Sequence record: OQ420740.1
Strand: one strand, 5' to 3'
Source of the DNA: Escherichia phage B9-1
Length of the DNA stretch: 64,000 nt
Below, in pieces: positions 1 to 18,634 of this stretch (position 1 is its first letter; every line of letters starts with the position of its first letter). The notes below the pieces were generated by a model that made no database searches, was not told the DNA's origin, and saw only the letters and a program-made list of their open reading frames with translations. The translations under genes and the position numbers were made by a program.

Positions 1-3000
1 AACGGAACGTCGTTGACTGTCCACGAACACCCAGACCCTTGGCCTGATCCTGGAAAACCTCACCCAGGTGCTCGTACACTGAAAATTGTCAGCCATGATG
101 CAGGATATTTCGGAATACGCTGGGAAGCCACAGTAAGATATGCAGACGGGACAACAAACAACATAGGGATTACACTTGGAGGCACCAGTGAAGATAGCTC
201 TCTGAAAATTGCCTACACCCCTAGGGGCATCTCTATTGATAATATGGATGTTGTTCGCAATGGTTACGGCGATGTGAATGTCAAAGTTACTCTTGGCGAA
301 CATCTTGGTGGGGAAAGGATCATCATGTATGCCTTTGATCATGACCCGCGAACCAATGGAACTTATGCAAATCAGGCATGGAGTTACCTGATAAATGCAC
401 CTGAGCCGAATACTAAAGAGTTCTACTACGGTATGAAGCGAGATGTATGCAAGAAAACAGGAACACATGACTGGATTGCTATCTGCGTTAAAGATGAGCG
501 CACAGCTTGGGATGAGCCTGTTAATAGATGGTTCATAGGTATTCCTACCAGAAGCGATAAGTATATCGCAGAATACATTGTGTGCATGGGCGGTACCAAC
601 CTAAATATGTGTTGGAACGAAGATGCAAACAAATACTCTGATTATGACTATATGAGAGATTACTCTTGTAATCAGTGGTTTAACCAATCAACAGGGTATC
701 CTCCACGACAGGCGAGAGTAAACCCTGCAATCTTTACAGATACGCAGGTTTTCTTGACAAAACAGGCCAACGAGGTTCAGACCTTCAAGAACAAATACGA
801 CCCTAACAAGTGGTTTTATAACTGTTATGGCGCATTTTTCTGGGGTCCTGGCGAACTGCCTAATGGAGGATCTTGCTTCGAGGCTGCAACTTACGCCAGT
901 GACAGGTTCATGGGGCAGGTTAAGAAGTACAAGATAATCCCAGGGCCTGAAACTTTAGGCAACGCTGTTGACCCATATATCATCATGACAGCACTAAGAT
1001 CGAACATGGACGGAACATCCATATCTATGCAAGTTCCAGTAACAAACGGGTACAAACGTGTTGTGATGATCATTAAGTGCGACTTAATAGGTAAGCAAGT
1101 TCTTGCAGAAAACGGAACCTCAACACATCTATTCGAGACTGCTCTGCATTATCAGTTTGCTGATTCACCTTTTGCAGGGGATAAGAGAATATCTGATACA
1201 GACAACACTCGATGCAAGAAATTTATGCTTGGTGGTGGATGGTGGTGGTATGAATTTGATTTAACAGACAAATTCACTGACACGTCTAAAGTGGTGACAG
1301 GGCTTCGTCTAGATCTTGGCGAAAACATGCACAAAAGTGTTTGTGATGGCACCTACGGTGACCCAACAATCTACTTAAAGTATGTCTCTTTTGAGCATCC
1401 GGAAGATGTTGTTTACGGTCCAAAACTGAGATTGTTTGGCAGTTGGATTGCAAAAGACAGGGTAGGCATGGGTAAAAAGGTAAGAGGGTTCTTGGTTGAT
1501 GCAGGAACAGAAGACATGCTGGTTAATGCAGTGTGGCCTGAATTACCTGGGACTCAGTGGGATAACTCAGCCAAGTCCATAAACTGGTTCAACATTCACA
1601 GAGCTATGTGGACAACTAACTGCTACCTGTGGAAAGAGTTGAATGACGGCGCTTTCGGGTTTACAGGTGGCAGAAGAATGGCAATCATTTGCTGGACAAC
1701 GCTGCAAAGATGTTATGACCATGACTACGAGATTGGGGGTAGGGCATGGAAAAATATTAGGGATAGAATCATAACTAACTTCGCAGACCCTAATGGTGGT
1801 GGAGCGTATGGCTTCGACTGCAGCAGGCTCATCCATTTGAACGGGTCCTCTGCATATAAGAAAGAGGGTTACTCTGGATCTATGATTGAGTGGGGCCTGG
1901 TGAAAGATGCTCGCGTATTGATGGGTCAACAACTTGCTGCTGCAATAGGACCTAACGCAGTGCAGTCTGTTAAACCAGCGTGGTTCGATATCCCAATATG
2001 GTCATCTGGAACACCAGGAACTGCGGCAATCAACCCTACCACTGGGGATCTGGAAATCTCTTGGGAGGACTTGAAGCAGGTTGGTGGCTGGGATAAGACA
2101 GGCTACCAGGTACAATGGTGGAGATCTGACGGATCGTTAGCGGCTGATGAGTTTGTTAAGGACAATTTCTACACTATGTCCTCTGCAAAAGCACAGCAAT
2201 TGTTTGGTCAGGCAACTCCGTCAACGATCACCATGTCCATGTGCTGTAAAGACAACAGGACTGGAGCCCTGGGACCAAGGGTTGCTAAAGTTTTCTCAGG
2301 TATTAAATGGAATCTCCCTGTTCAAAGTGTTTCATGGAAGCAAATAGGTGATAACAAGCTGCTGGTTACTCCTGCCTGTCAGTTCAACGCAACTCTTAAC
2401 GTTGATCCTGCTGTTGCGGCAAACTCAGCTAAAGCTTCTGACTTCTCTGTGTCTAACACTGCTATGGCAGATGTGAGGAAGATTGATACACTGAATGCCA
2501 GAATTACCTGTAAAAACACTTATGGCACATTCCAGATCATCAACAACTTCACAGATGCTGATTCTAAGGTAGTGAGGACAGCAAGCCAGACTATGCAGTT
2601 GGGAACTCTGGCATACTCTGCCTTGATCACTGAACAATCTCCTACCCTTCAGGGTGGGGGTGTTGGTAAGTTGATCACAACACCTGTGTGGAAGCCAAAT
2701 GAGTGGGTTGTGTTTGATTTGACTGTAGACTTCTCCAGTGACAATAACTGGACATGGGTAAGGAATTGCTTGTCACAGTTGATGGGTGGTCCAAGCTCTG
2801 TTAGTGATAGCCACGACTCTACTGACCCGAGCGTGTTCCAGGTGGGTAAAACTCACCCAGAAACTGGGGCACAGTTGCCTGACAGGAAGTATGCTTTGGT
2901 TTGCATCTCTTACGGAAAAGCAGATGTCACCTTCTCAGGGACGCACACTTATAACGGAACTTACAACTTCTCAAGGAAGTATAGTCTCAAGGCTGGTAAC

Positions 3001-7151: not shown

Positions 7152-7385
7152 TTAATCTTCGTAAATAATGATTTCTGCTTTAGGTTTTCGTGCTTTCAGG
7201 TCCAGCTCTATCCAGTGCACCATCGCTGTTTCAAGAAAAACAGCCTGGATGCATCCGTCTTCAGCGTGCCCTACCAGCATAACAAGATCTTCACATTCAT
7301 CATCTGCATCACGGACATACAAGATCTCTCCAGATTCAAAGTCTTTCACAACCTGATTGCTGGATAATTTACGAATTTTTGCCAT
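7152..7385 (-). CDS. Small protein, member of tandem paralogue array (77 aa)
   Basis: Track ORF; shares GEI/GTVV core and acidic C-terminus with next three genes. Confidence 0.5.
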   Translation of the reverse strand: MAKIRKLSSNQVVKDFESGEILYVRDADDECEDLVMLVGHAEDGCIQAVFLETAMVHWIELDLKARKPKAEIIIYED

Positions 7386-7386
7386 A

Positions 7387-7650
7387 TCAGAAACCCTCTA
7401 AAAAGCTCTTGTAGAAAATAATCTCAGTATCCACACCAGTCACGATCTTGTCGTTCCTGATTTCATCTGTAAGATAGGTGTCAAAACGCAGCACCTGTGT
7501 GGTATTGTCACACATCCACTCGGCTGTTACCATGGCAAAAATCTTAGCATCTTCATTATCTGGTGTAAATGTCACCACCTCACCGCATTTAAACTTTTCG
7601 ATAGGTTGCGTGTTAGCTTTTGGTTCTGCAATGGTGATTTTCGTGGTCAT
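7387..7650 (-). CDS. Small protein, tandem paralogue array member (87 aa)
   Basis: Track ORF; CGEVVTF core similar to neighbours. Confidence 0.55.
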   Translation of the reverse strand: MTTKITIAEPKANTQPIEKFKCGEVVTFTPDNEDAKIFAMVTAEWMCDNTTQVLRFDTYLTDEIRNDKIVTGVDTEIIFYKSFLEGF

Positions 7651-7913
7651 TATTCTCCTCCTTCTTTTGAATAGCTTGTCTCTCCAAGGATGGTAATTTT
7701 GGTGTCAAGCTCTGTAACTTTCATGTTTGGTGGCAGATCGTACAACTCATTATTTTCTAAATCGAACCCCCATACACAATGTTCCCCTGTTTTGACAATC
7801 ATAACTATGTTTTGAATGCCGTCTCCGTCACAACTTACCACGGTCCCACATGGAAAACTGTCTGCACGCTTTTTGTTCTTCACTTTAGAATTGAATACAA
7901 TGCTAGTAGCCAT
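7650..7913 (-). CDS. Small protein, tandem paralogue array member (87 aa)
   Basis: Track ORF; MAT..F.S..K.KK...GTVV...FDL...ILGE pattern shared with 7913..8176. Confidence 0.55.
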   Translation of the reverse strand: MATSIVFNSKVKNKKRADSFPCGTVVSCDGDGIQNIVMIVKTGEHCVWGFDLENNELYDLPPNMKVTELDTKITILGETSYSKEGGE

Positions 7914-8176
7914 TATTGTTCCTCCACCATAACTTCGCCAAGAATTTCTATGCAGGCATCCATTTCTGTAACAACCAAGGTGTGAGGTAGTTCTGCAAAC
8001 ACCTTTCTGAACAGGTCAAATACCCCAACATATATGTTTGCAGGATGTGATCTCACAACAAGTGCTGTATTCACATCTCCAAGTTCATCAACAAACATCA
8101 CCACAGTACCTGGAGCTACTGAAGACAGATACTTCTTAGTTTTACGGTTGGATGCAAATTTTAACTCTGTTGCCAT
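7913..8176 (-). CDS. Small protein, tandem paralogue array member (87 aa)
   Basis: Track ORF; clear similarity to 7650..7913. Confidence 0.55.
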   Translation of the reverse strand: MATELKFASNRKTKKYLSSVAPGTVVMFVDELGDVNTALVVRSHPANIYVGVFDLFRKVFAELPHTLVVTEMDACIEILGEVMVEEQ

Positions 8177-8191
8177 AAATAATCTCCTCCT

Positions 8192-9673
8192 TTATTTAAC
8201 GTACTCGATTAATTCCACAGTTCTCCCAAAGCTAGGGATATAATTTTTATTATACCCTTCGGTGAGAACCCATAAAGTATCGTACTTTTTCCACTTGTTG
8301 TCAACAGCCTTTTGTTCAAAGTTATGCTCAAAGTATAGGTCGGTAAGGACGATGACATCTTTTGCATTTGGTATGTTAGCATCCAGATACTCGAACACGC
8401 AGGCGGCTGTTGTGCCCCATGTTGAGTGGACCTCATAGTTGATCATCTCATCGATGTTACCGCGAGTGTATACTTTAACCTCTCCAACCTCGGTTGACCA
8501 ACAGAACATCGTAACCTTAAACTCTTTATACAAATTGCACAACCCGGTGATCTCATTGAACATTTTCTTTAAAGTTCTTTGTGAGATCGATCCAGAAACG
8601 TCTAAAGCCACCACAATATCTATAGTGTTTTCCGGATTACGACCAGGAACAATAACGTGCTGATTCTTGTTTATAGCTCCAACTTTTCGCATTGTGGTGG
8701 TCAAAGACCCAGATCGGCGACCCGGTTTTCTGTAGGTTAACTCAGCCTTCCTTTTAGATAACATACGTTGCTTAATAATATCTATATAATTGATTACAGG
8801 CTTGCCTCTGTTTTTGACAAACTCGCGCACCGCCTCGGGGCAACGACCTCCTGAAGCTTGCATTGCTGCTTCCAACATGTCACCAGAGTCCTGCATGGCC
8901 TGATCTTTATCCGATTGACTGATTACTGGTTGCGGCTGATCATACCCCATAGCCTTTCCAAGATCATCACTAGTGCCACCGTTCCCGCTCATGTGATCAT
9001 CGGTTTGTCGTTTATCTCCTTGGGAGTTCTCTCCTTTACCGTTCTTACTTTTACCGCTATTCTGATCTCTTTGTTTATCAAGAACTGCATAGACGTTCTC
9101 AGCAATCCATCCATGAAACTTCATGTCGCAGTAGCAACTAGCTAAGAAGCCAAAAGGCTTACCTTTTACGAACTCAGTGCTTTTCCCCTTCGGGAAGAAA
9201 ACACAAGGAGGCTTGCTAAAGTCAACCACAAGACCTGTGTTGATAACGTGATCACAAGCAATATTGAACAGTTCCGGCTCAAAGCTTTTACCACGGACCA
9301 GATGATCACAGATAATATGCCCCACCTCATGTGACAGAAGAAAGGCCACCTCTTTCACAGATTTTGGGGAATAGAAAACCTCAGCCATCTCAAACTGCTT
9401 GTCAGTCAGAGATGCTTTAAGAATGGTTTTACGCTCATCTGCCAACCCCATAATGAACTCAGGGCTGTAGTAGATGCGTTTATGGTCTGTTGCCATAGTG
9501 GAGCACCATGTGTGGTTTTCTACGAACTGCAACCCTGACAACAGTGTGCCATAAAACGGCAGCTTTTCAAGAAGGTACATGCGAGCGGCCTGCAGCATTC
9601 GCAAGGCATCATCTTTTTGTGCGGTAATGATTTCTGAACTTCTGCTATCCATTAAAACTCCAGAAGGGGCCAT
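8192..9673 (-). CDS. Putative metallopeptidase (HExxH) fused to von Willebrand factor A domain
   Basis: Track ORF 493 aa; HEVGHIICDH zinc-protease motif; C-terminal VWA MIDAS motif VVALDVSGSIS. Confidence 0.8.
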   Translation of the reverse strand: MAPSGVLMDSRSSEIITAQKDDALRMLQAARMYLLEKLPFYGTLLSGLQFVENHTWCSTMATDHKRIYYSPEFIMGLADERKTILKASLTDKQFEMAEVFYSPKSVKEVAFLLSHEVGHIICDHLVRGKSFEPELFNIACDHVINTGLVVDFSKPPCVFFPKGKSTEFVKGKPFGFLASCYCDMKFHGWIAENVYAVLDKQRDQNSGKSKNGKGENSQGDKRQTDDHMSGNGGTSDDLGKAMGYDQPQPVISQSDKDQAMQDSGDMLEAAMQASGGRCPEAVREFVKNRGKPVINYIDIIKQRMLSKRKAELTYRKPGRRSGSLTTTMRKVGAINKNQHVIVPGRNPENTIDIVVALDVSGSISQRTLKKMFNEITGLCNLYKEFKVTMFCWSTEVGEVKVYTRGNIDEMINYEVHSTWGTTAACVFEYLDANIPNAKDVIVLTDLYFEHNFEQKAVDNKWKKYDTLWVLTEGYNKNYIPSFGRTVELIEYVK

Positions 9674-9685
9674 TGGCCCCTGTCA

Positions 9686-10735
9686 TTATTTAACGTGCTT
9701 GAAAATACCAGCCAACTCGGTCATTGTCATGCGAGTGGTCTTCATAAGGTCTGTCATAGCCTTCTCCATGATTGGAGATACTACCATGAAGTTACCTTTG
9801 GTGAAACCTTTGTTCCAGTCGGTAACTAATAGGGGTTTAAGTCCGGCACCGAGACGTTCACCAGTTAAAGCACAACATTTTCGAATGTATGTGCTCTTAA
9901 ACTGGCTGAATGACAGATCAACTTTCATACCTGCATCGTAGAACGTCTGGCAATAGAAAGTGTAAGCTTTGGCAATCTCAACATCGTCAGGCAGTGCAGG
10001 AACCTCTTCTGTAAGCTCTTCTTCGACCCCTTGAGGCTCTTTTTCCTCTTCGTAAGCCTGTTGCGTCATCTCTTCAATCTCCTCTACTACAGGCTCGTTT
10101 ACAATGTCAGAAATGTGCTTGTTGGCTCCACGATTAGCCATGAAGTTTTTAAAATCCTGCATTGGTGACATATCTTCCTCCCATTCTTCGTCAAAGAGTG
10201 CTAGTTTATCCTCTTCCGTTCCATATTGCAAGATGAAATCTTCAAAAGTGTAATCACCTTTCAATTTCTCCATACGCTCTTCGCTCAGGTGGAGCATCAT
10301 CTGCTGGACAATTTTTCGATCAGTTTTGTCTTTAATCAAGACTGCGGTCTTTTTATCTACCAGGCAGTCCTTTAGGGAGTTGCATCTCAATCCCACCACA
10401 CAACAATTATCAACCGCATAAGGACCTTCATCATCTATCCGCTCCAGAGATGGGTAGAAAGGATTTCCCAGTCCGTTTTCATCTGTGTGCATGTCGAAAG
10501 GTATAAGGGTATAGTCGCATACTCCCTCTCCTAAAAGTTTTTTACCAAATAGGAGATATTCTTCCCATGACAGGTTGAACTCTATATCCCGTTTCCGTGC
10601 GTTATTCTGTTTGCGTCTGTATTTTTTGAGCAAGCGCTCTAACTCTTCTGGTGTATAATATTTTTCAAGATTCATGAGTTGTCTCTTGTTCTCTGTGGGT
10701 GGAGAAATCTTACCAAGTGCCTGAGAAGATGTCAA
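9686..10735 (-). CDS. HNH-like endonuclease domain protein
   Basis: Track ORF 349 aa; SLERIDDEGPYAVDNCCVV resembles HNH core; acidic central region. Confidence 0.55.
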   Translation of the reverse strand: MTSSQALGKISPPTENKRQLMNLEKYYTPEELERLLKKYRRKQNNARKRDIEFNLSWEEYLLFGKKLLGEGVCDYTLIPFDMHTDENGLGNPFYPSLERIDDEGPYAVDNCCVVGLRCNSLKDCLVDKKTAVLIKDKTDRKIVQQMMLHLSEERMEKLKGDYTFEDFILQYGTEEDKLALFDEEWEEDMSPMQDFKNFMANRGANKHISDIVNEPVVEEIEEMTQQAYEEEKEPQGVEEELTEEVPALPDDVEIAKAYTFYCQTFYDAGMKVDLSFSQFKSTYIRKCCALTGERLGAGLKPLLVTDWNKGFTKGNFMVVSPIMEKAMTDLMKTTRMTMTELAGIFKHVK

Positions 10736-10748
10736 CCTGAAAAACGTG

Positions 10749-10777
10749 TTGACTTTACTCTAAATCCACGATATAGT
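10749..10777 (+). promoter_or_regulatory. sigma70-type promoter for rightward module
   Basis: -35 TTGACT 10749-10754, 17-bp spacer, -10 TATAGT 10772-10777; RBS TAGGAG before ATG 10818. Confidence 0.55.
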
Positions 10778-10817
10778 GCACCCATTCAAAAGAAAACTAA
10801 CATAGGAGCACTTACTC

Positions 10818-11717
10818 ATGACAAATCTTAACAGTTTTAGCACCAGGTGGAAACAAGATATCACAACCAATCTCTCAGCAGGTGATATCCTTTCTGCAAT
10901 TTACGAGGCTTTGGATGATAAAGCTACTTCAAAATCGGTTTGTACTAATCCGCTAATCCCTGTAGTGATGAAGGTAATTGAGCGGAGGTTGGTATCTGGG
11001 TCCGATAAGTGGACATACCTTGATAATGGAGGGCATACTTACTCCAACGGATATGTTGATATAAAAGTGGAATACGCAGTATCATACCGCCGGAGCGGTT
11101 CTGTAACTTTCAACTTCTCTGGAGGTTTCCGATCTCTGGCAACTTCACCTTTTGTTTCCTCAGAGGAGAAGTATGAGCTGCCATTTCTTTGGATGATGGC
11201 TAACGCGACAGGAAAAACCCCCGTTAGCATCCGAGTAAAATACAACTACAACGGATCTAGTAAGATCTATGCCGAGAGTGTCTCAGCAAGTTTTTATTTT
11301 GTGATGGGGGATGGAATCCTCAAACATATAAAGATGTGCGATATGCATGATGTTATAAATGAAGTGACTGATAAGAATGTCCTAGTGAAAGACCTCAATA
11401 ATTTTTATACACCTGGAGACTATTACGTCAACCGCCCACTGTGCATCTTTAATGCCGCACACCCTTTAGGTGAGTATTTGATCGCCAATAGCGATATTGC
11501 CAATAATCGCTTCGAGGTAGCAAGAGTACAGAATGAGGTGTTGACATCTTGCAAGAGCGGTGATAAGTTTACCGAAGAAGAGATGGGTGTTTTAGAGATG
11601 ATGGGATATAAGTGTAGCCTTTGGGTAGATGAGGTGTTTAATGACGGCATCTATGGACAGGATATTTACCCACTAAAGAAGTATACTGATTCCAGTTTAA
11701 TTTACGCGGGGATTTGA
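10818..11717 (+). CDS. Hypothetical protein (299 aa)
   Basis: Track ORF; first gene of rightward block after divergent intergenic region. Confidence 0.65.
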   Translation: MTNLNSFSTRWKQDITTNLSAGDILSAIYEALDDKATSKSVCTNPLIPVVMKVIERRLVSGSDKWTYLDNGGHTYSNGYVDIKVEYAVSYRRSGSVTFNFSGGFRSLATSPFVSSEEKYELPFLWMMANATGKTPVSIRVKYNYNGSSKIYAESVSASFYFVMGDGILKHIKMCDMHDVINEVTDKNVLVKDLNNFYTPGDYYVNRPLCIFNAAHPLGEYLIANSDIANNRFEVARVQNEVLTSCKSGDKFTEEEMGVLEMMGYKCSLWVDEVFNDGIYGQDIYPLKKYTDSSLIYAGI

Positions 11718-11719
11718 CT

Positions 11720-11992
11720 ATGATGAAGTCATGTGGTAGTGTATATTATGTTGGTGAGAATGTTCAGGCAGATAGTGTGTGGAAATCCATTAAGTCCACC
11801 ACCGATGATGCCTTCTTGAGCGGATCATGTTTCCCCAATCCTGGGGACATTCTCCCTTACCCTGGGGATTTTGTTGTCAATAAGATGGACGGTTACACCG
11901 TGTGCCTGATGGTTGAAAAAATCTTTTTAGACACTAGACACAATCACCGTCTTGTGTTAAAATTTCAAGAATGTAAAATGACAGTTGCCTAA
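11720..11992 (+). CDS. Hypothetical protein (~90 aa)
   Basis: Track ORF 11714..11992; ATG at 11720 preferred over TTG 11714. Confidence 0.5.
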   Translation: MMKSCGSVYYVGENVQADSVWKSIKSTTDDAFLSGSCFPNPGDILPYPGDFVVNKMDGYTVCLMVEKIFLDTRHNHRLVLKFQECKMTVA

Positions 11993-12004
11993 GGAGGCCT
12001 ACCA

Positions 12005-12361
12005 ATGTCTAAAGTTACTTATCGTGCAGCTATTTACTGCAATGAGCAACCAATCAATAGTGATGGTCACTGCTTTTTTAAAGAAAATCAGTTGGGCTGT
12101 ATTGCCCTCCCTGATGAAGGGGAAGGTTATATGATTGCATTGACAGGGTTTGAGCCTGAAGCCTTGGAAGCCAATCTGGACTACCTGGTAGAGAAGGGTG
12201 CTGCAGACTTGGTTGCCAATGGCCTCTCCATAAGCCTTGAAGAAGTGGAGCGCTTCATGGGCAATTACCGTGTAGTGCGTGAGTTTACTGTCGAGGTGGA
12301 AACTCCAGAGTGGGGTGGTACTGAAACTAATGCTGAAGAAAAAGAAGAGGAGGCAGAATAA
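12005..12361 (+). CDS. Hypothetical protein with acidic C-terminus (118 aa)
   Basis: Track ORF; RBS AAGGAGG upstream; ends EEKEEEAE. Confidence 0.6.
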   Translation: MSKVTYRAAIYCNEQPINSDGHCFFKENQLGCIALPDEGEGYMIALTGFEPEALEANLDYLVEKGAADLVANGLSISLEEVERFMGNYRVVREFTVEVETPEWGGTETNAEEKEEEAE

Positions 12362-12618
12362 TGAAAGTGCAAATCTTAACTAATGCCGAGAAGATGTTTA
12401 TCGAAGATACGCCTTTTGAAACTGGTGAGCTACAGTTTGTATATTTTGTTGACTTAGATAAGGTTTTTCCTGCGCTGAATCTGGGTTTGGAGAAAGTACC
12501 TTATAAAACTCTATGCCAGGTTGTCCGTGCCTTAGCGGCAGATGGAGAGTTCCACACCTTTGAAGATATCCAGACCTATGGGTATCTTGAACTGCAACGA
12601 GAAGAAGAGGTAGACTGA
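12361..12618 (+). CDS. Hypothetical protein (85 aa)
   Basis: Track ORF; start overlaps upstream stop. Confidence 0.55.
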   Translation: MKVQILTNAEKMFIEDTPFETGELQFVYFVDLDKVFPALNLGLEKVPYKTLCQVVRALAADGEFHTFEDIQTYGYLELQREEEVD

Positions 12619-12620
12619 TA

Positions 12621-13001
12621 ATGGCCCAGTGGAAGACAACAGTTGACCTTCATGATCAGTGGTTAGGACGCATAACTGAAGACGGGAAACTGGTAGAGTG
12701 GGACAACAAACATGTTAGCGAGTTGGCAAGTATTGTGGCTGGCAAGTTACGCTCCAAGTTCCCTGAACAGCTGGATCCTGATAGTTCAAAGTTCGATCCT
12801 GAGTTGGAGGATGTTGTATACTACTTCGATACCGTTGATGACTACGACGCGTGGTTTGCAGCACGGGAGCTTTACCCACAAGGCTCTGCTATGCGCAAGA
12901 TGGAAGAAGATTATCCTCCGTGTGAGCAATTCAATAGTGCAATGACTTGCCTCTATGATTGGGCAGATAAGAACCTTGTCTGGATTCGGACTGCATTTTA
13001 G
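12621..13001 (+). CDS. Hypothetical protein (126 aa)
   Basis: Track ORF. Confidence 0.6.
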   Translation: MAQWKTTVDLHDQWLGRITEDGKLVEWDNKHVSELASIVAGKLRSKFPEQLDPDSSKFDPELEDVVYYFDTVDDYDAWFAARELYPQGSAMRKMEEDYPPCEQFNSAMTCLYDWADKNLVWIRTAF

Positions 13002-13045
13002 TGGGTAGGGATGGCGGCAAGGATGCTGCTTAAGGAGCAGTAGAG

Positions 13046-13315
13046 ATGTTATACCAGCAGTACGAACTTCGTGCAGAAAAAGAATTAAATTTTGACAAAG
13101 ATATTCACAGATATTATTATGGGAAAGTTAGAGGGCAAGCAAGAAAGTGTACTCCAACACTCTTTTATGCCAGCAGACGACTAGCGCCAGAAGAGGCAAC
13201 AGCAGAAAGGGTTGCATATGGCTGGAGAGTTGCGTATGATATTGACAGATCCGATGTGATGTCTGTTTTGGAAAACTTTGAAAACACTTACACACAAGTA
13301 GAGGACTTTTACTAA
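13046..13315 (+). CDS. Hypothetical protein (89 aa)
   Basis: Track ORF; stop overlaps next start. Confidence 0.55.
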   Translation: MLYQQYELRAEKELNFDKDIHRYYYGKVRGQARKCTPTLFYASRRLAPEEATAERVAYGWRVAYDIDRSDVMSVLENFENTYTQVEDFY

Positions 13316-14499
13316 TGTCAAGAAACGTATTCGAAAGTGGTCAAATCACTGTCCGCGAGTTGCCAGCTATTATTCAATTTGCCCAGCGTCATAACCGATC
13401 TGTCCTGATTTTAGGACCGATGGGCGTGGGGAAGAGCCAGGTGATGAAGCAGATTGCTGATAGTATGTTCGGTGAGCGAGATGACAACCTTGTTGACGTG
13501 CGACTGTCAGATAAAGACCCTGCTGACTTATCTGGGCTACCTATCCCTGTAGAGTCGGATGGGACTACACGTACAGTGTTTGCAATTCCAGAATTTTGGC
13601 CTGCAGATCCGGACTGGAGCGGAATTATCTTTCTAGACGAGCTTACTCATGCAGATAACTACCTGCAGAAGGTTGCAATGCAAATTATGCTCGACCACAA
13701 GTGCGGCACCTATGCATTTCCTAAGGGCTCTGTTTTTGTAGCTGCAGGTAACCGTGCTACAGACGGTGCTGTTCTTTCGGCGCTCGAAGCTCCTCTAGCT
13801 AACCGCTTTATCATTGTAGAAGTTACAAGCAGTGCAGAGGTGTTTATTGAGGACTATGCATTCCTTAATGGGGTGCACTCCTCTGTAATTGGATATCTGA
13901 AAAGAGTCCCATCAGCCATTGATAATTATGAGGCCATGGCTGAGATTAATTGTCCATCTTTTGCCACACCGCGATCTTGGGTTGCTGCATCTGACATCTT
14001 GCACGATTTTGACAGCGGTATTATTTCTGACGCTATGGCCCGTGTCCTTCTACAAGGTGCCATTGGTCACACTGCAGCGGTAGAAATTTGGACCTACCAC
14101 ACCAAGAAACGAAACTTGCCAGAAATCGGTCGGATTATGGCAGGAGGCTGCAAAGAATATGTAGGTCCTAAGCAGCCAGACATCTTGTGGATTCTGGGGT
14201 CTGAAGGTTGTATCGCTATTCGTAATATGATGGAAAATGCAAGTATCTCCGACGAAGATCTCGTCAGCTGTGTGGCAAACTTCCTTGATTTCCTTTGGGA
14301 AAATTTCAAGGATGAGAACCGAGACTTTGTATTCTCAGTCTTTATGGCGATGATGAAACCTAACGCCTTAGGAAATGCCTTACTTATTGGTAAAGGCAGG
14401 GACAAGATCGTTGCTCAGCTGATCAAAGCATACCCAAACCTGATGAAGATTGTAAAAGAGTTTGGTGAAGAGTTTAGCGCCATTTTAGCTAAAGCTTGA
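13315..14499 (+). CDS. MoxR-like AAA+ ATPase (AAA_5 type)
   Basis: Track ORF 394 aa; Walker A ILGPMGVGKSQ; Walker B IIFLDELTHAD; AAGNRA...LANRF arginine-finger region. Confidence 0.8.
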   Translation: MSRNVFESGQITVRELPAIIQFAQRHNRSVLILGPMGVGKSQVMKQIADSMFGERDDNLVDVRLSDKDPADLSGLPIPVESDGTTRTVFAIPEFWPADPDWSGIIFLDELTHADNYLQKVAMQIMLDHKCGTYAFPKGSVFVAAGNRATDGAVLSALEAPLANRFIIVEVTSSAEVFIEDYAFLNGVHSSVIGYLKRVPSAIDNYEAMAEINCPSFATPRSWVAASDILHDFDSGIISDAMARVLLQGAIGHTAAVEIWTYHTKKRNLPEIGRIMAGGCKEYVGPKQPDILWILGSEGCIAIRNMMENASISDEDLVSCVANFLDFLWENFKDENRDFVFSVFMAMMKPNALGNALLIGKGRDKIVAQLIKAYPNLMKIVKEFGEEFSAILAKA

Positions 14500-14508
14500 G
14501 GAGGTTGT

Positions 14509-14889
14509 ATGGCTAAAGTAGGTAAGCGGGGAAACTACTTGGTGGTATTGACCGAGGAGCCGGAGAAGGAGTACGAATGCAGCTCCGCTTGTGTGATCGA
14601 TATCCGAGAAAAAGATGTGGATGAAATCTGGTTTAAAATACTGGACGCTTGCGACAGCAGTGACTATTTCTTCATCTATGTCAACGATAAAGCGGGGTTC
14701 TTCCATGACGATGGGGAATTACCGTATGAAATCTATGAACTTGTAGAGGCTTGCCATCGTGGAGATGCGGAGTTGTTTGGTCTACGGCTGAAAAGCGGTA
14801 AATTCTTCTATCAAGATGAATGCATGAATCTTCACAACTTCGTAGAGGGGACTTGCAACGATGGAGAGATTTTGGCACACTACGATTAA
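14509..14889 (+). CDS. Hypothetical protein (126 aa)
   Basis: Track ORF with RBS GAGGAGG; followed by terminator. Confidence 0.6.
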   Translation: MAKVGKRGNYLVVLTEEPEKEYECSSACVIDIREKDVDEIWFKILDACDSSDYFFIYVNDKAGFFHDDGELPYEIYELVEACHRGDAELFGLRLKSGKFFYQDECMNLHNFVEGTCNDGEILAHYD

Positions 14890-14902
14890 TTTCTAAGACA
14901 CA

Positions 14903-14929
14903 CCCCGCTTCGGCGGGGATTTTCTATTT
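14903..14929 (+). terminator. Intrinsic terminator
   Basis: Hairpin CCCCGC-ttcg-GCGGGG 14903-14918 followed by ATTTTCTATTT. Confidence 0.7.
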
Positions 14930-14938
14930 GGAGCTATT

Positions 14939-15439
14939 GTGAAAATTAAAATCTTTGCTATTATTTTGAGCGCATTTTTATCGCTGCCTGTTGTTGCAGC
15001 ACCAAAACAAAAAGTATATCACACTTGCAAGCCGTCGGATACTAAGGAAAACATTCTAGCATGCAATATCTACAGGGAGGCTAGAGGGGATGGCACGATG
15101 GGTATGCTGGCATCCGGATTTGCCACACTAAACAGGAAATCTCACCCCAAATACCCAGACACTATAAGAAAGATTGTCTACCAACCTAACCAGTTTTCGT
15201 GGACAAACCACGGCAAAACTTTTAAGGTGACAGAAAAAGATTCATGGGATCACGCTAAAAGTCTTGCAAAGATGCTTCTAAAGGTCTATAATAACAACCA
15301 TGTTGCATACATGGCTATGGATATAACAGGCGGAGCAACACACTACCATACAACAAAAGTACGACCGAAATGGGCAAAAAAGATGCAGAGGACAGCTCAA
15401 TTCGGGAGCCATATCTACTACAAGGAGCGCAATAAATGA
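14939..15439 (+). CDS. Secreted SleB/CwlJ-like cell-wall hydrolase (GTG start)
   Basis: Track ORF 166 aa; N-terminal signal peptide MKIKIFAIILSAFLSLPVVAAP; motifs ILACNIYREARGDG and QPNQFSW typical of Hydrolase_2 family. Confidence 0.65.
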   Translation: MKIKIFAIILSAFLSLPVVAAPKQKVYHTCKPSDTKENILACNIYREARGDGTMGMLASGFATLNRKSHPKYPDTIRKIVYQPNQFSWTNHGKTFKVTEKDSWDHAKSLAKMLLKVYNNNHVAYMAMDITGGATHYHTTKVRPKWAKKMQRTAQFGSHIYYKERNK

Positions 15440-17418
15440 TTGTAAACAGCAATGAAACTAAAGCGGTGCTAACTGGGAATATGGAGGTAACCAGGGGATC
15501 AATTTCTCTGAACAAAGAGACTTTTGGGCTAATCATCAAAGGGATTTATGAAGATAAGGTACTGGCAAGCTGCCGTGAACCGATCTTCAATGCTGTGGAC
15601 TCACATGTTGAGTCTGGACGAGGTGATGTACCGATCATCATTCACTCTCCTACAGACCTTGAACCATACTTCTTTGTGCAGGACGTTGGATTAGGCATGT
15701 CAGAAGAGATGGTCCGTAACACTTTCATGAACCTAGGTGAGTCGACCAAGCGCAACAGCAACGCTCTGGTAGGCAATAAAGGTGTTGGTTCAAAGGCCCC
15801 GTTCAGCATGGTGGACACTTTCGATGTAATCAGTGTGCACAACGGTGTGGAAAGCACATACCTATTGTTCTTGGACCAGGGTATCCCAAATGTCACCAAG
15901 ATCCGTGAGCGGAAGACTGAAGAGCACAACGGGGTAAAAGTTCAGTTTCATGTTAAGAAAGAGCATGTTCTGAAATATCGCACCGCTATTGCATCATGCC
16001 TGCGCTATGCAAAATTTCCGTTCACTGTCACCGACCCGATGACGAGCAAGATGCTGGAGGGAGACAAAGTAGAGGCGCAGTATTATTATGAAAAAGATGG
16101 TTGGAAGATGACCATCCTGAAGGGTTATACCAGCTCTGACGAGAGTCGTGTGGTAATGGGTCACCAACCTTACCGTTCTAAGTTCCTGGAGACACTAATA
16201 GATTATCCTGCAATTTGTGTAGAGATCCCTATCGGAGATTGCAATATTAACCCAGGGCGTGAATGGACCATAGAAGGTCACGACGATGGTGGATTCCAAG
16301 AGCGTTTGGAAGCTTTTGTCAAAGAAGGCATTCGCCTTCGTGGAGCAGAAGTTGTTGCAGAACTGGAGACAGCAAAAACATCCTCAGAAGCACGCGAGAT
16401 GATGAAGAACAGTGGAGTGTTCGGGCACATCTTCGGTAAGAATTTTATGTATGACCGCTGGGAAGAAACAGGGCTAGGAAATTTGGGGGACTGCGAGATC
16501 TTCGCTGGCGGCTTAAATAAAGGCCGCATAGGTTACGCCTGCTACGGAAAGGTAGAATTCTTACGGGGAGTTTATTTAGTATTTAACGACGGAGACGGCA
16601 AATATAACCGGAATAAGTGTAACTACTTAAGCGAGATTACCGGACGCAACGTTTTCTATTGCCGTAACACGGATCTGGTGAAAGAGTTTAAAGAGGCGGC
16701 ACACCATCCGTTTTTTGCAGATACGGTCAAATTGTTATCGGAGCTTCCACGCCGACCTACGAAGAAAGGTGAAACCAAAACCCGTTACGAACCAGGCTAT
16801 TGGGTTAAAAAACTTGAGAAGGATGGTTACTTCCGGCGTGAGCGTATTACTAAGGCAGAGTTCAGGAAGATTAAGCACTGCATACCGTATGAGGGGGATA
16901 TCCAACGCGGAAGTTGTTGGCTAGGGCAGATGAGCAACATCTACCAGCAAGATTATGACCGTGTGCGTTCGGCACTCCAGATTCCTGAAGGGGAAGATCT
17001 GTACCTGGTGTCGGAATCTCGTCTGCTTTGGACTGATCCTGATTGCCAATATGTTACAGAGAAGAATGTGGAACATTTGTTGAAAGAGGATGCTTGGAAA
17101 TTCTTACTAACTCGCGCAGCAAATGAAACTTCATATGACAGCCTGTACAGACAGTTAGGTAAAATTATCCCCATGCAGGATTTTGGAAGTTATCGGCCAC
17201 ATTTCCACAAGTGGGAAGGTAGCACCACGTGGAAGTACGGTGAGCTAAATCATCGTGCCAAAATCTTAATCGCCAACCGGGTTAAGTGCGGGAAGGCCTA
17301 TATTGCAAGATTGGAAAAGAAATATCCACTTTTGAAGCATGTAGGCTTGAAATATTGGGACACTCCTGCTATGATTGAATACCGTGAACTGATTGATACA
17401 AAGAATAACATCAAATAA
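15436..17418 (+). CDS. GHKL-family ATPase domain protein, possibly rIIA-like
   Basis: Track ORF 660 aa; N-box EPIFNAVDS, G1 box VQDVGLGM, G2 box GNKGVGSKA; rIIA assignment is inference from domain type and size. Confidence 0.6.
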   Translation: MIVNSNETKAVLTGNMEVTRGSISLNKETFGLIIKGIYEDKVLASCREPIFNAVDSHVESGRGDVPIIIHSPTDLEPYFFVQDVGLGMSEEMVRNTFMNLGESTKRNSNALVGNKGVGSKAPFSMVDTFDVISVHNGVESTYLLFLDQGIPNVTKIRERKTEEHNGVKVQFHVKKEHVLKYRTAIASCLRYAKFPFTVTDPMTSKMLEGDKVEAQYYYEKDGWKMTILKGYTSSDESRVVMGHQPYRSKFLETLIDYPAICVEIPIGDCNINPGREWTIEGHDDGGFQERLEAFVKEGIRLRGAEVVAELETAKTSSEAREMMKNSGVFGHIFGKNFMYDRWEETGLGNLGDCEIFAGGLNKGRIGYACYGKVEFLRGVYLVFNDGDGKYNRNKCNYLSEITGRNVFYCRNTDLVKEFKEAAHHPFFADTVKLLSELPRRPTKKGETKTRYEPGYWVKKLEKDGYFRRERITKAEFRKIKHCIPYEGDIQRGSCWLGQMSNIYQQDYDRVRSALQIPEGEDLYLVSESRLLWTDPDCQYVTEKNVEHLLKEDAWKFLLTRAANETSYDSLYRQLGKIIPMQDFGSYRPHFHKWEGSTTWKYGELNHRAKILIANRVKCGKAYIARLEKKYPLLKHVGLKYWDTPAMIEYRELIDTKNNIK

Positions 17419-17428
17419 GGAGACCAAG

Positions 17429-18634
17429 ATGATTTTCATCTACGAACATTTCAAAACTCGTAAAGAAGCACGTGACCGCCGTGCAGAACTTGAGAAGAAG
17501 GGTTTCACATGCGCTATTGAGAAAGGTAACACAACCTGGACACTGGCAGTAGGTGCCCCAGAGTTGTTCGATCCTGACCGTGACAGCGTCTGCTACACCC
17601 GTGAGGATTTTGAAACCCGTGAAGAGGCCCGTTTATTTCGATATGGGCTGGAAGATAACGGTAAGTACGCCATGATCTTAGATTTAGGAGAAGGTTCCGT
17701 TAAACGTTGGGGTGTGGTATATCCACTGTGTGTTGTTCACGGTGTAGGGTTCACTGGGGTAGCAATCAAGTCAGAAGAACCTTTAGTAGAAGTAAAAGAC
17801 CCGGTGCTGGAGGTGGTGAGCAGTGTGTCTCAGCAACAGACCCGAAGCATCGAGCCTTTGGTGGTTATTTGCGGGGAACTCCTCCAGATCACCTGCAACG
17901 AAGGTATTTTTGAAATTCGCCGCAGTGAAAGTGAGGAAGTTTACCAGAAAGTCTTCGACCATATCTCTGTTCAGGAATATGACGAGGCAATTGGTGAAAT
18001 CCTTGTCTGGCTGGAACGCAAGAATGAGTTCACCACACTTGCAGACAACCTGATCATGAAAGATGGTAAGCTCTACTACTACGGTGTAGAGATGCGATCC
18101 ACCATTGCAAAGAAAATTGAGAAAGATTATGCAGACGGAACACTGGATGACCGCTATGTGAAATTCCTCGTTCGCCTGCTACGCAATCCTTCTGCAAAAT
18201 CTGTAAACATGCTCTACGATTTTATGCAGGCAAACGACATTCAGATTGCAGAAGATGGTCGAATCATTTGCTACAAAGGGGTTCAGTTTAACGGCGACAA
18301 GTGGGTGGATTGGCACAGTGGTAAAGTCCCACAATACCAGGGGGCTTTTGTATCCATGCCTCGTAACTTTGTAGAGGATGATCCGGAAGCTGCATGCTCT
18401 TATGGCCTGCACTGTGCCAGCAAAGAGTATGCAAAGAGCTACGGAACTGTGATGACGGTTATGGTTGACCCTGCCGATGTAGTTAGTGTACCTTACCAAC
18501 ACAACAGCGCCAAGTGCCGTGCATGCCGCTACGAAATCGTAGTAGCTCCAGAATCGCGCAAAGATGGCGACCCAATTGAGTACGTGGTTGACCGCGACGG
18601 TAATACTATCGACATTATCTACGAGGAGGCGTAA
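17429..18634 (+). CDS. Hypothetical protein, possible rIIB-like partner of upstream gene
   Basis: Track ORF 17393..18634; ATG 17429 preceded by RBS AAGGAGA is the likely start; partner call is by position only. Confidence 0.5.
   Translation: MIFIYEHFKTRKEARDRRAELEKKGFTCAIEKGNTTWTLAVGAPELFDPDRDSVCYTREDFETREEARLFRYGLEDNGKYAMILDLGEGSVKRWGVVYPLCVVHGVGFTGVAIKSEEPLVEVKDPVLEVVSSVSQQQTRSIEPLVVICGELLQITCNEGIFEIRRSESEEVYQKVFDHISVQEYDEAIGEILVWLERKNEFTTLADNLIMKDGKLYYYGVEMRSTIAKKIEKDYADGTLDDRYVKFLVRLLRNPSAKSVNMLYDFMQANDIQIAEDGRIICYKGVQFNGDKWVDWHSGKVPQYQGAFVSMPRNFVEDDPEAACSYGLHCASKEYAKSYGTVMTVMVDPADVVSVPYQHNSAKCRACRYEIVVAPESRKDGDPIEYVVDRDGNTIDIIYEEA

Follow-up and report, generated by a model that had tools for sequence, protein, structure and literature searches.

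The two proteins and their conserved residues

The window, a 64,000-nucleotide stretch of Escherichia phage B9-1 (OQ420740.1), encodes a MoxR-type AAA+ ATPase on the plus strand and, on the minus strand, a DUF2201 protein (here VWA-peptidase) that joins a putative zinc metallopeptidase domain to a von Willebrand factor A (VWA) domain (Table 1). Homologues of these proteins are encoded side by side in nearly all other genomes examined, which supports their partnership, while in the window the two genes lie 3.6 kb apart on opposite strands. Both open reading frames (ORFs) of the original prediction were present, and its HEVGH, DVSGS, Walker A and Walker B motifs were confirmed by translation.

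The VWA-peptidase matched Pfam DUF2201_N (PF13203, "putative metallopeptidase domain"; 100.4 bits against a cut-off of 23.2, E 1.7e-28) and DUF2201 (PF09967, "VWA-like domain"; 43.5 bits against 26.4, E 4.1e-11) in N-to-C order, which is the full DUF2201 architecture. Twelve residues were invariant in an alignment of 55 homologues with identity to the window protein down to ~20%, among them H108, E109, H112, H117, and D134 as well as D351, S353, S355, T414, and D438, the five residues of the complete metal ion-dependent adhesion site (MIDAS). HEVGH and DVSGS are not chance motifs, because they are invariant in diverse homologues and the Pfam scores lie far above the cut-offs. The family profile also matched the integrin alpha-X I domain (E 1.3e-5) in an alignment that covers DVSGS, and the Rossmann-like VWA fold was supported by fold search, with NorD and BchD among the matches; the VWA domain of one relative reached the Pfam VWA_CoxE cut-off. 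The peptidase links of the N-terminal domain consisted of sub-threshold sequence matches to Peptidase_M48, BepA, HtpX, and the minigluzincin MJ1213. A single-sequence PDB search with the VWA-peptidase gave no matches, comparison with the PADLOC defence-system models gave none either, and an NCBIfam scan returned nothing meaningful.

The fusion of a VWA domain to a zinc protease had been taken as a special feature of this phage. It is instead the defining architecture of DUF2201: when the family profile was searched against 1.84 billion cluster representatives, 15,371 clusters at 50% identity were matched at E <= 1e-30, and the best 150 listed were mostly near-full-length matches. Iyer et al. 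2021 (PMC7824862) had explicitly reported this architecture in phages. The gene itself stood as predicted at 8192-9673, except for its start, which is more likely the ATG at 9652 than that at 9673, because the latter sits in the loop and stem of a GC-rich hairpin (9665-9681), GGAG precedes 9652, and the resulting 486-aa form is also used by GenBank records and by the 536-member cluster P0121. This hairpin, which lies within the 33-nt gap between the VWA-peptidase gene and its upstream neighbour, is predicted to sequester ATG 9673, and it may serve as an attenuator, a processing site, or an mRNA-stabilising element.

In the ATPase, G37, G39, K40, S41, D108, E109, N146, R147, R164, and R220 were invariant among 51 sequences, so that Walker A and B, sensor 1, the arginine finger, and sensor 2 are all intact in the alignment. 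The predicted "AAA_5-type" assignment was not reproduced by a direct Pfam scan, and confirmation of the motifs by profile search was thus obtained for the VWA-peptidase and not, in that scan, for the ATPase. Indirect support for the assignment came from homologues, the 51-sequence profile, and the fold. Homologues at E ~1e-45 (31-35% identity over ~85% of the length) carry AAA_3, AAA_5, and bpMoxR, and a Sulfurovum homologue passes AAA_3 (38.1 against 27) and AAA_5 (34.3 against 22). The top PDB match of the 51-sequence profile was midasin (E 2e-11); the single sequence found P-loop-level Clp matches only in PDB, and only marginal P-loop matches in PADLOC. In the AlphaFold (AF2) model (predicted local distance difference test score 85), strands 75-81 and 84-90 lie between beta-2 and the Walker B strand, and the closest folds were CbbQ, NorQ, midasin, and dynein. 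The helix-2 beta-hairpin insert defines the MoxR/midasin/dynein/chelatase clade of AAA+ proteins (Kaur et al. 2020). On the homologues, the profile search, and the predicted fold, we still place the window ATPase in the MoxR clade, as a putative divergent AAA+ member.

GenBank records of Vequintavirus name the ATPase "MoxR ATPase" or "ATPase" and the VWA gene "putative metallopeptidase" or "VWA-like domain-containing protein". The DUF2201 protein is also widely misnamed, in some of these Vequintavirus records too: as "HNH endonuclease" in PHROG 1314 and several RefSeq records, with N4 gp25 and Atu_ph07 gp263 among the proteins affected, and as "anti-sigma factor" in ECP26-type records. Both names were rejected as functions of the VWA-peptidase, since neither domain was detected in it. 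A label of known anti-phage defence or counter-defence was likewise dropped, because PADLOC gave no significant match for either protein.

Gene order in relatives and the separation of the pair

The 6.7-kb region containing both genes matched 121 phage records, nearly all of them Vequintavirus (rV5/FV3-like E. coli myophages), with Escherichia phage vB_EcoM-ECP26 as the best DNA match (99.2% identity). The VWA-peptidase was present in 674 of 50,697 phage records, which include N4-like phages, Vequintavirinae, and jumbo phages. The single ATPase sequence had reached close relatives only, and with the ATPase alignment 80 viral loci were found. In all 66 of them that lie outside the Vequintavirus lineage and have enough downstream sequence, the DUF2201 gene comes next after the ATPase gene, in the same orientation and no more than 540 bp away. 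The same adjacent, co-directional, ATPase-first order was observed in N4 gp24/gp25, Atu_ph07 gp264/gp263, and CR3_112/CR3_113, and also in the chromosome of Sulfurivermis fontis, in phage-like metagenome contigs, and in 46 bacterial loci, mostly of Campylobacterota. The numbers of phage records with the ATPase and with the VWA protein were nearly identical for each host genus (213 and 213 for Escherichia, 26 and 26 for Pectobacterium, 17 and 17 for Cronobacter). Moreover, the identities to the window proteins dropped in parallel across lineages, from 73 through 54 and 35 to ~26% for the ATPase and from 63 through ~45 and 34 to ~22% for the VWA protein. The expectation that a MoxR ATPase and its VWA partner belong together was therefore borne out by the gene-neighbourhood comparison: the partnership is supported because the homologues adjoin in nearly all other genomes examined, the record counts match, and the identities fall in parallel.

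The adjacent, ATPase-first order is ancestral. The split form, with the genes 3.5-3.85 kb apart on opposite strands, was found in the window, in eight other Vequintavirus loci, and in one locus (L013) of a related Klebsiella-phage lineage with 54% ATPase identity, so the original prediction was right that the partners are divided between divergent units, and this arrangement is unusual for the family. The catalytic and MIDAS residues are all intact in the split lineages down to ~45-54% identity. Judged from gene order and these residues, the genes were rearranged into the split form in an ancestor that Vequintavirus shares with its nearer relatives, and neither gene was inactivated thereby. 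Since Cronobacter phage CR3, also a member of Vequintavirinae, keeps the adjacent order, the split arose within this subfamily. Comparison of the flanking small ORFs with CR3 and another locus (L014), made for reconstruction of the rearrangement, gave no detectable homologues. The two genes, their annotation, the fused architecture, and the pairing of MoxR with a VWA-peptidase in phages are already known; the separation of the pair across a conserved divergent promoter in Vequintavirus and one Klebsiella-phage lineage was not found in the literature searched.

Two further observations concern these relatives. A conserved protein of ~450 aa is encoded directly upstream of the ATPase in ~47 Campylobacterota loci (for example L125 6559-7947 and L136 6650-7999), its gene often overlapping the ATPase start. 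The protein looks helical-repeat-like by eye, and the one copy scanned directly (L125) had no Pfam match; in Sulfurovum the unit of this gene and the ATPase occurs without a DUF2201 gene, and no homologue of the ~450-aa protein was found in the phage loci. In addition, 16 records named "Campylobacter phage", most with the host given as C. jejuni, matched the E. coli Vequintavirus region at 90% DNA identity or more, and three of them (MG065644, MG065677, and MG065682) had ~98-99% identity in the VWA-peptidase and ATPase proteins. Mislabelling or contamination seems likely to explain these names.

The divergent promoter region and its two arms

The original prediction had placed the two genes on either side of a divergent promoter region. 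They do lie on opposite arms that run outward from 10676-10817, but neither flanks this region directly: the VWA-peptidase gene comes second on the minus arm, and on the plus arm the ATPase gene is in seventh place, at a distance of 2.5 kb from the promoters. Both -35 hexamers were invariant in six phages, in an alignment averaging 65% column identity and with flanking proteins just 28-66% identical.

The minus arm begins with a gene that probably shares a transcript with the VWA-peptidase gene. It matched PHROG 3118 at 6e-112 and, more weakly, PHROGs for T4 Srd anti-sigma, "decoy of host sigma70", and endonuclease VII/HNH-like proteins. By eye, the C-terminal third of its product resembles a second copy of the N-terminal domain. 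Beyond the VWA-peptidase gene the arm runs on into ~14 small ORFs. Those directly downstream (7152-8176, minus strand) form a tandem small-gene array, in which three members measure exactly 87 aa and the fourth 77 aa. Clear paralogy (38% identity, E 1.6e-11) links ORFs 7650-7913 and 7913-8176; the other members align only weakly.

Six ORFs precede the ATPase gene on the plus arm, and no Pfam domain was found in the five of them that were scanned. The 299-aa ORF has no Pfam or NCBIfam match and falls in a PHROG of unknown function; its "fucosyltransferase" name appears to be an unsupported legacy annotation. The ATPase start overlaps the stop of the 89-aa ORF in a TAATG (13312-13316), kept in seven of seven aligned relatives, which suggests that translation of the ATPase is coupled to that of the small protein. 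Conservation of the promoter-like site within the 89-aa ORF is inseparable from coding constraint and hence uninformative. Downstream of the ATPase gene, the hairpin at 14903-14918 is accompanied by T-rich sequence on the plus strand, has a terminator-like score on both strands, and precedes a cell-wall hydrolase gene; it probably ends the ATPase-containing transcript. Past this hairpin the plus arm carries the cell-wall hydrolase gene, rIIA, rIIB, helicases, and a primase.

Table 1. Features of the VWA-peptidase and ATPase locus in the window (motifs marked "translated" were checked by translation)
Feature	Position	Strand	Remarks
DUF2201 VWA-peptidase gene	8192-9652	-	486 aa
Zincin-like N-terminal domain of VWA-peptidase	residues ~1-200		candidate metallopeptidase
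Disordered G/S/D/K-rich linker of VWA-peptidase	residues ~196-232		
Helical region of VWA-peptidase			between linker and VWA domain; conserved RPxRR motif
VWA/MIDAS domain of VWA-peptidase	residues ~340-486		C-terminal
HEVGH (H108-E109-x-x-H112)	9317-9331	-	candidate zinc-binding catalytic motif; translated
H117 of VWA-peptidase	9302-9304	-	invariant
D134 of VWA-peptidase	9251-9253	-	invariant
DVSGS	8588-8602	-	DxSxS part of MIDAS; translated
T414 of VWA-peptidase	8411-8413	-	completes MIDAS
D438 of VWA-peptidase	8339-8341	-	completes MIDAS
GC-rich hairpin GGGGCC-AAU-GGCCCC	9665-9681	-	-14 kcal/mol, z -1.8
Srd/HNH-like gene	9686-10675	-	annotated "anti-sigma factor"; first gene of minus arm
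Divergent intergenic region	10676-10817	.	back-to-back sigma-70-like promoters
Promoter TTGACA-17-TAAGAT	10735-10707	-	consensus scan, 10/12
Promoter TTGACT-17-TATAGT	10749-10777	+	consensus scan, 10/12
Six plus-arm ORFs before ATPase	10818-13315	+	299-aa ORF and five small ORFs
299-aa ORF	10818-11717	+	annotated "putative alpha 1-3 fucosyltransferase"
89-aa ORF	13046-13315	+	last before ATPase
Promoter-like site TTGACA-17-TATTAT	13092-13120	+	11/12, inside 89-aa ORF
MoxR-clade AAA+ ATPase gene	13315-14499	+	394 aa
Walker A GPMGVGKS	13414-13437	+	translated
Walker B IIFLDE	13624-13641	+	translated
Further ATPase residues			sensor-1 N146/R147; R164; R220
Helix-2 beta-hairpin insert of ATPase	residues ~75-90		
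C-terminal helical domain of ATPase			
126-aa ORF, then hairpin with T-run	14509-14918	+	ORF without Pfam match
Palindromic GC hairpin CCCCGC-UUCG-GCGGGG	14903-14918	+	-14 kcal/mol, z -2.5

Possible function and comparison with known systems

We favour, with a little more confidence than doubt, a role in which the pair, driven by ATP and guided by the VWA domain, remodels and cleaves a non-structural client, either of the host or of the phage. In the general logic of MoxR-VWA pairs, the VWA MIDAS captures a client peptide and the MoxR ring remodels the client (Kaur et al. 2020). By analogy with the characterised pairs, the VWA domain would grip an acidic or extended peptide of the client via its metal-bound MIDAS, the hexameric ATPase would dock on the DUF2201 co-factor and spend ATP on remodelling the client, and the attached zincin domain would then cut it, which would make the two polypeptides an adaptor-guided processing machine. 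Because the back-to-back promoters are of sigma-70 type and conserved, both genes would be transcribed outward by host RNA polymerase and both proteins made early, the VWA-peptidase together with host-takeover genes of the minus arm and the ATPase together with the rII and replication genes of the plus arm. The invariance of the catalytic glutamate of HExxH argues for real hydrolysis.

The neighbours of the pair bear on the class of client. N4 gp24/gp25 lie near dCTP deaminase and rIIA/B, the Atu_ph07 pair near DNA polymerase, glutaredoxin, and RNA ligase, and metagenomic phage pairs near 5'-3' exonuclease, thymidylate synthase, and dihydrofolate reductase. Bacterial pairs lie among cellular, non-prophage genes (GGDEF/PAS, ExoX-like exonuclease, PIF1-like helicase, MoeA), and no virion genes occurred among their commonest neighbour families; the module therefore does not need virions. 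A host protein or a non-structural phage protein is thus a more likely client than a virion component.

Several results weigh against this interpretation. The pairing is not obligatory, because 19 bacterial loci have the ATPase without a DUF2201 gene within 8 kb, and two more have DUF2201 at a distance. In the direct Pfam scan the window ATPase stayed below threshold for AAA_5 (17 bits against 22) and bpMoxR (16 against 27), and the AAA_3 and AAA thresholds were missed as well. Two fold searches with the full-length VWA-peptidase model gave VWA matches only, which filled both lists, so that the zincin fold was not confirmed by them. The promoter calls are consensus matches, and the expression timing is derived from these calls and from gene context. 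The virion protein N4 gp17 is encoded in the same region as gp24/gp25, and an early/middle position is compatible with a morphogenetic role. Among the characterised MoxR-VWA systems, the majority serve in the maturation of metal centres or complexes and not in client cleavage. Our literature search found no experimental study of any phage DUF2201/MoxR pair, and the main text of the CRISPRi-ART paper, which uses EdH4 and N4, contains no MoxR, VWA, or metallopeptidase terms.

The proximity of gp17 to the N4 pair also suits a virion-assembly chaperone and processing protease that acts on structural proteins, which it would fold or assemble and also trim. Iyer et al. 2021 (Viruses 13:63, PMC7824862) made this proposal in silico for the same architecture, a MoxR protein with a vWA protein bearing an N-terminal metallopeptidase, in group 2.2 jumbo phages, where it would serve in assembling the virion and in peptidolytic processing, a view based on the Atu_ph07 proteins and on analogy to p618 and p892 from the Acidianus two-tailed virus (ATV), which interact and are implicated in tail development. 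Large myophages, moreover, require many assembly factors. ATV p892, however, has no peptidase domain, and the gene neighbourhoods point elsewhere: in none of the loci examined did the pair lie inside a structural module, its neighbours being replication, nucleotide-metabolism, or small early genes, and just two of 112 neighbour ORFs matched a "virion structural" PHROG. In the window, the genes stand beside sigma-70-like early promoters in an rII/replication context rather than a structural one, and homologous pairs occur in bacterial chromosomes without virion genes nearby. We consider an assembly role unlikely. A similarly low probability is given to a non-proteolytic maturation chaperone, comparable to NorQ/NorD, CoxD/CoxE, CbbQ/CbbO, and the chelatases, which would load or swap a metal or cofactor or restore the activity of an enzyme; its target might be a nucleotide-metabolism enzyme, with the HExxH domain handling metal or binding the client without cleavage. 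The fold matches of the ATPase to CbbQ and NorQ, those of the VWA domain to NorD and BchD, and the relative that reaches VWA_CoxE are consistent with such a chaperone, as are the recurrence of nucleotide-metabolism enzymes among the neighbours and the ferrochelatase and thioredoxin that flank the Sulfurivermis pair. Yet the HExxH glutamate is invariant along with the histidines, as expected of a hydrolase and needless for plain metal binding; the lineages do not share any one enzyme as a conserved neighbour, and an early-region neighbourhood is weak evidence.

The proteins might also have been functionally uncoupled in Vequintavirus, each acting with other partners after the split or one of them becoming dispensable. 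The distance of 3.6 kb and the separate transcription units would fit this, as would the apparent translational coupling of the ATPase to the 89-aa ORF and the bacteria in which the ATPase has a different, ~450-aa upstream gene and no nearby DUF2201. Uncoupling is nonetheless quite improbable given that both genes are kept in equal numbers in essentially all Vequintavirus and related genomes, their motif residues are all intact, the divergence of the two proteins runs in parallel, and both arms start from one conserved promoter region.

A more specific form of the client-cleavage reading, which we regard as doubtful, is that the pair is a trans-acting, adaptor-guided AAA+ protease with which virulent phages, before late expression, would attack one particular host protein (for instance a defence, transcription, or nucleoid factor) by destruction or processing; the split would then gate proteolysis by time or dosage, and the bacterial copies would be a dedicated regulatory protease. 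If so, the Vequintavirus split would put the peptidase-adaptor beside the first host-takeover genes and the motor among the rII/replication genes. The MoxR/DUF2201 module is among the more widespread conserved gene pairs without known function in virulent phages, and it is common in bacteria too. Once the client is identified, a core gene pair in several phage families used for therapy would have an assigned function, and MoxR-VWA biology would gain a protease-bearing variant. The split pair is weak evidence that co-translation or the fixed stoichiometry of a single operon is dispensable, and, in a natural setting, it allows each of the two genes to be altered without the other.

Compared with known systems, the window protein differs from the VWA partners in NorQ/NorD, CbbQ/CbbO, CoxD/CoxE, and RavA/ViaA, which have no zincin domain and whose roles are in metal-centre or enzyme maturation, not in proteolysis; the window ATPase also scored below the Pfam thresholds for the bacterial MoxR families of these systems. 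ATV p618 and p892 are a viral MoxR-VWA pair that acts as chaperone and co-chaperone, and their interaction and the stimulation of ATPase activity were shown experimentally. The differences are that ATV is an archaeal virus, that the peptidase domain is missing, and that p618 is a virion component in extracellular tail growth. In the Agrobacterium jumbo phage Atu_ph07, gp264/gp263 have the same two-protein architecture and are homologous at E 1e-80 and 2e-93. That pair is adjacent, unlike that of the window, and the early/middle, non-structural context of the window contrasts with the virion role proposed for jumbo phages. In Cronobacter phage CR3 (Certrevirus, Vequintavirinae), the homologous pair CR3_112/CR3_113 (~34-35% identity) lies on the plus arm downstream of a divergent region and differs from the window in keeping the ancestral adjacent order. 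In N4, gp24 (ATPase) and gp25 ("HNH endonuclease") are homologous to the window pair by family profile hidden Markov models (E 3.6e-58 and 1.6e-75, respectively), and gp25 (L092 5165-6307) is, like the window protein, a strong member of DUF2201_N (3e-87) and DUF2201 (1e-46). The identity to the window proteins is ~22-26%, and the N4 genes are adjacent, co-directional, and ATPase-first, whereas those of the window lie 3.6 kb apart on opposite strands. In both phages, however, a few genes separate the ATPase gene from rIIA-rIIB, which follow downstream on the same strand, in a non-structural region (9938-20075 of L092 in N4 and 13315-18634 in the window), so that the ATPase-rIIA-rIIB arrangement forms a loose synteny between the otherwise unrelated Vequintavirus and N4 families.

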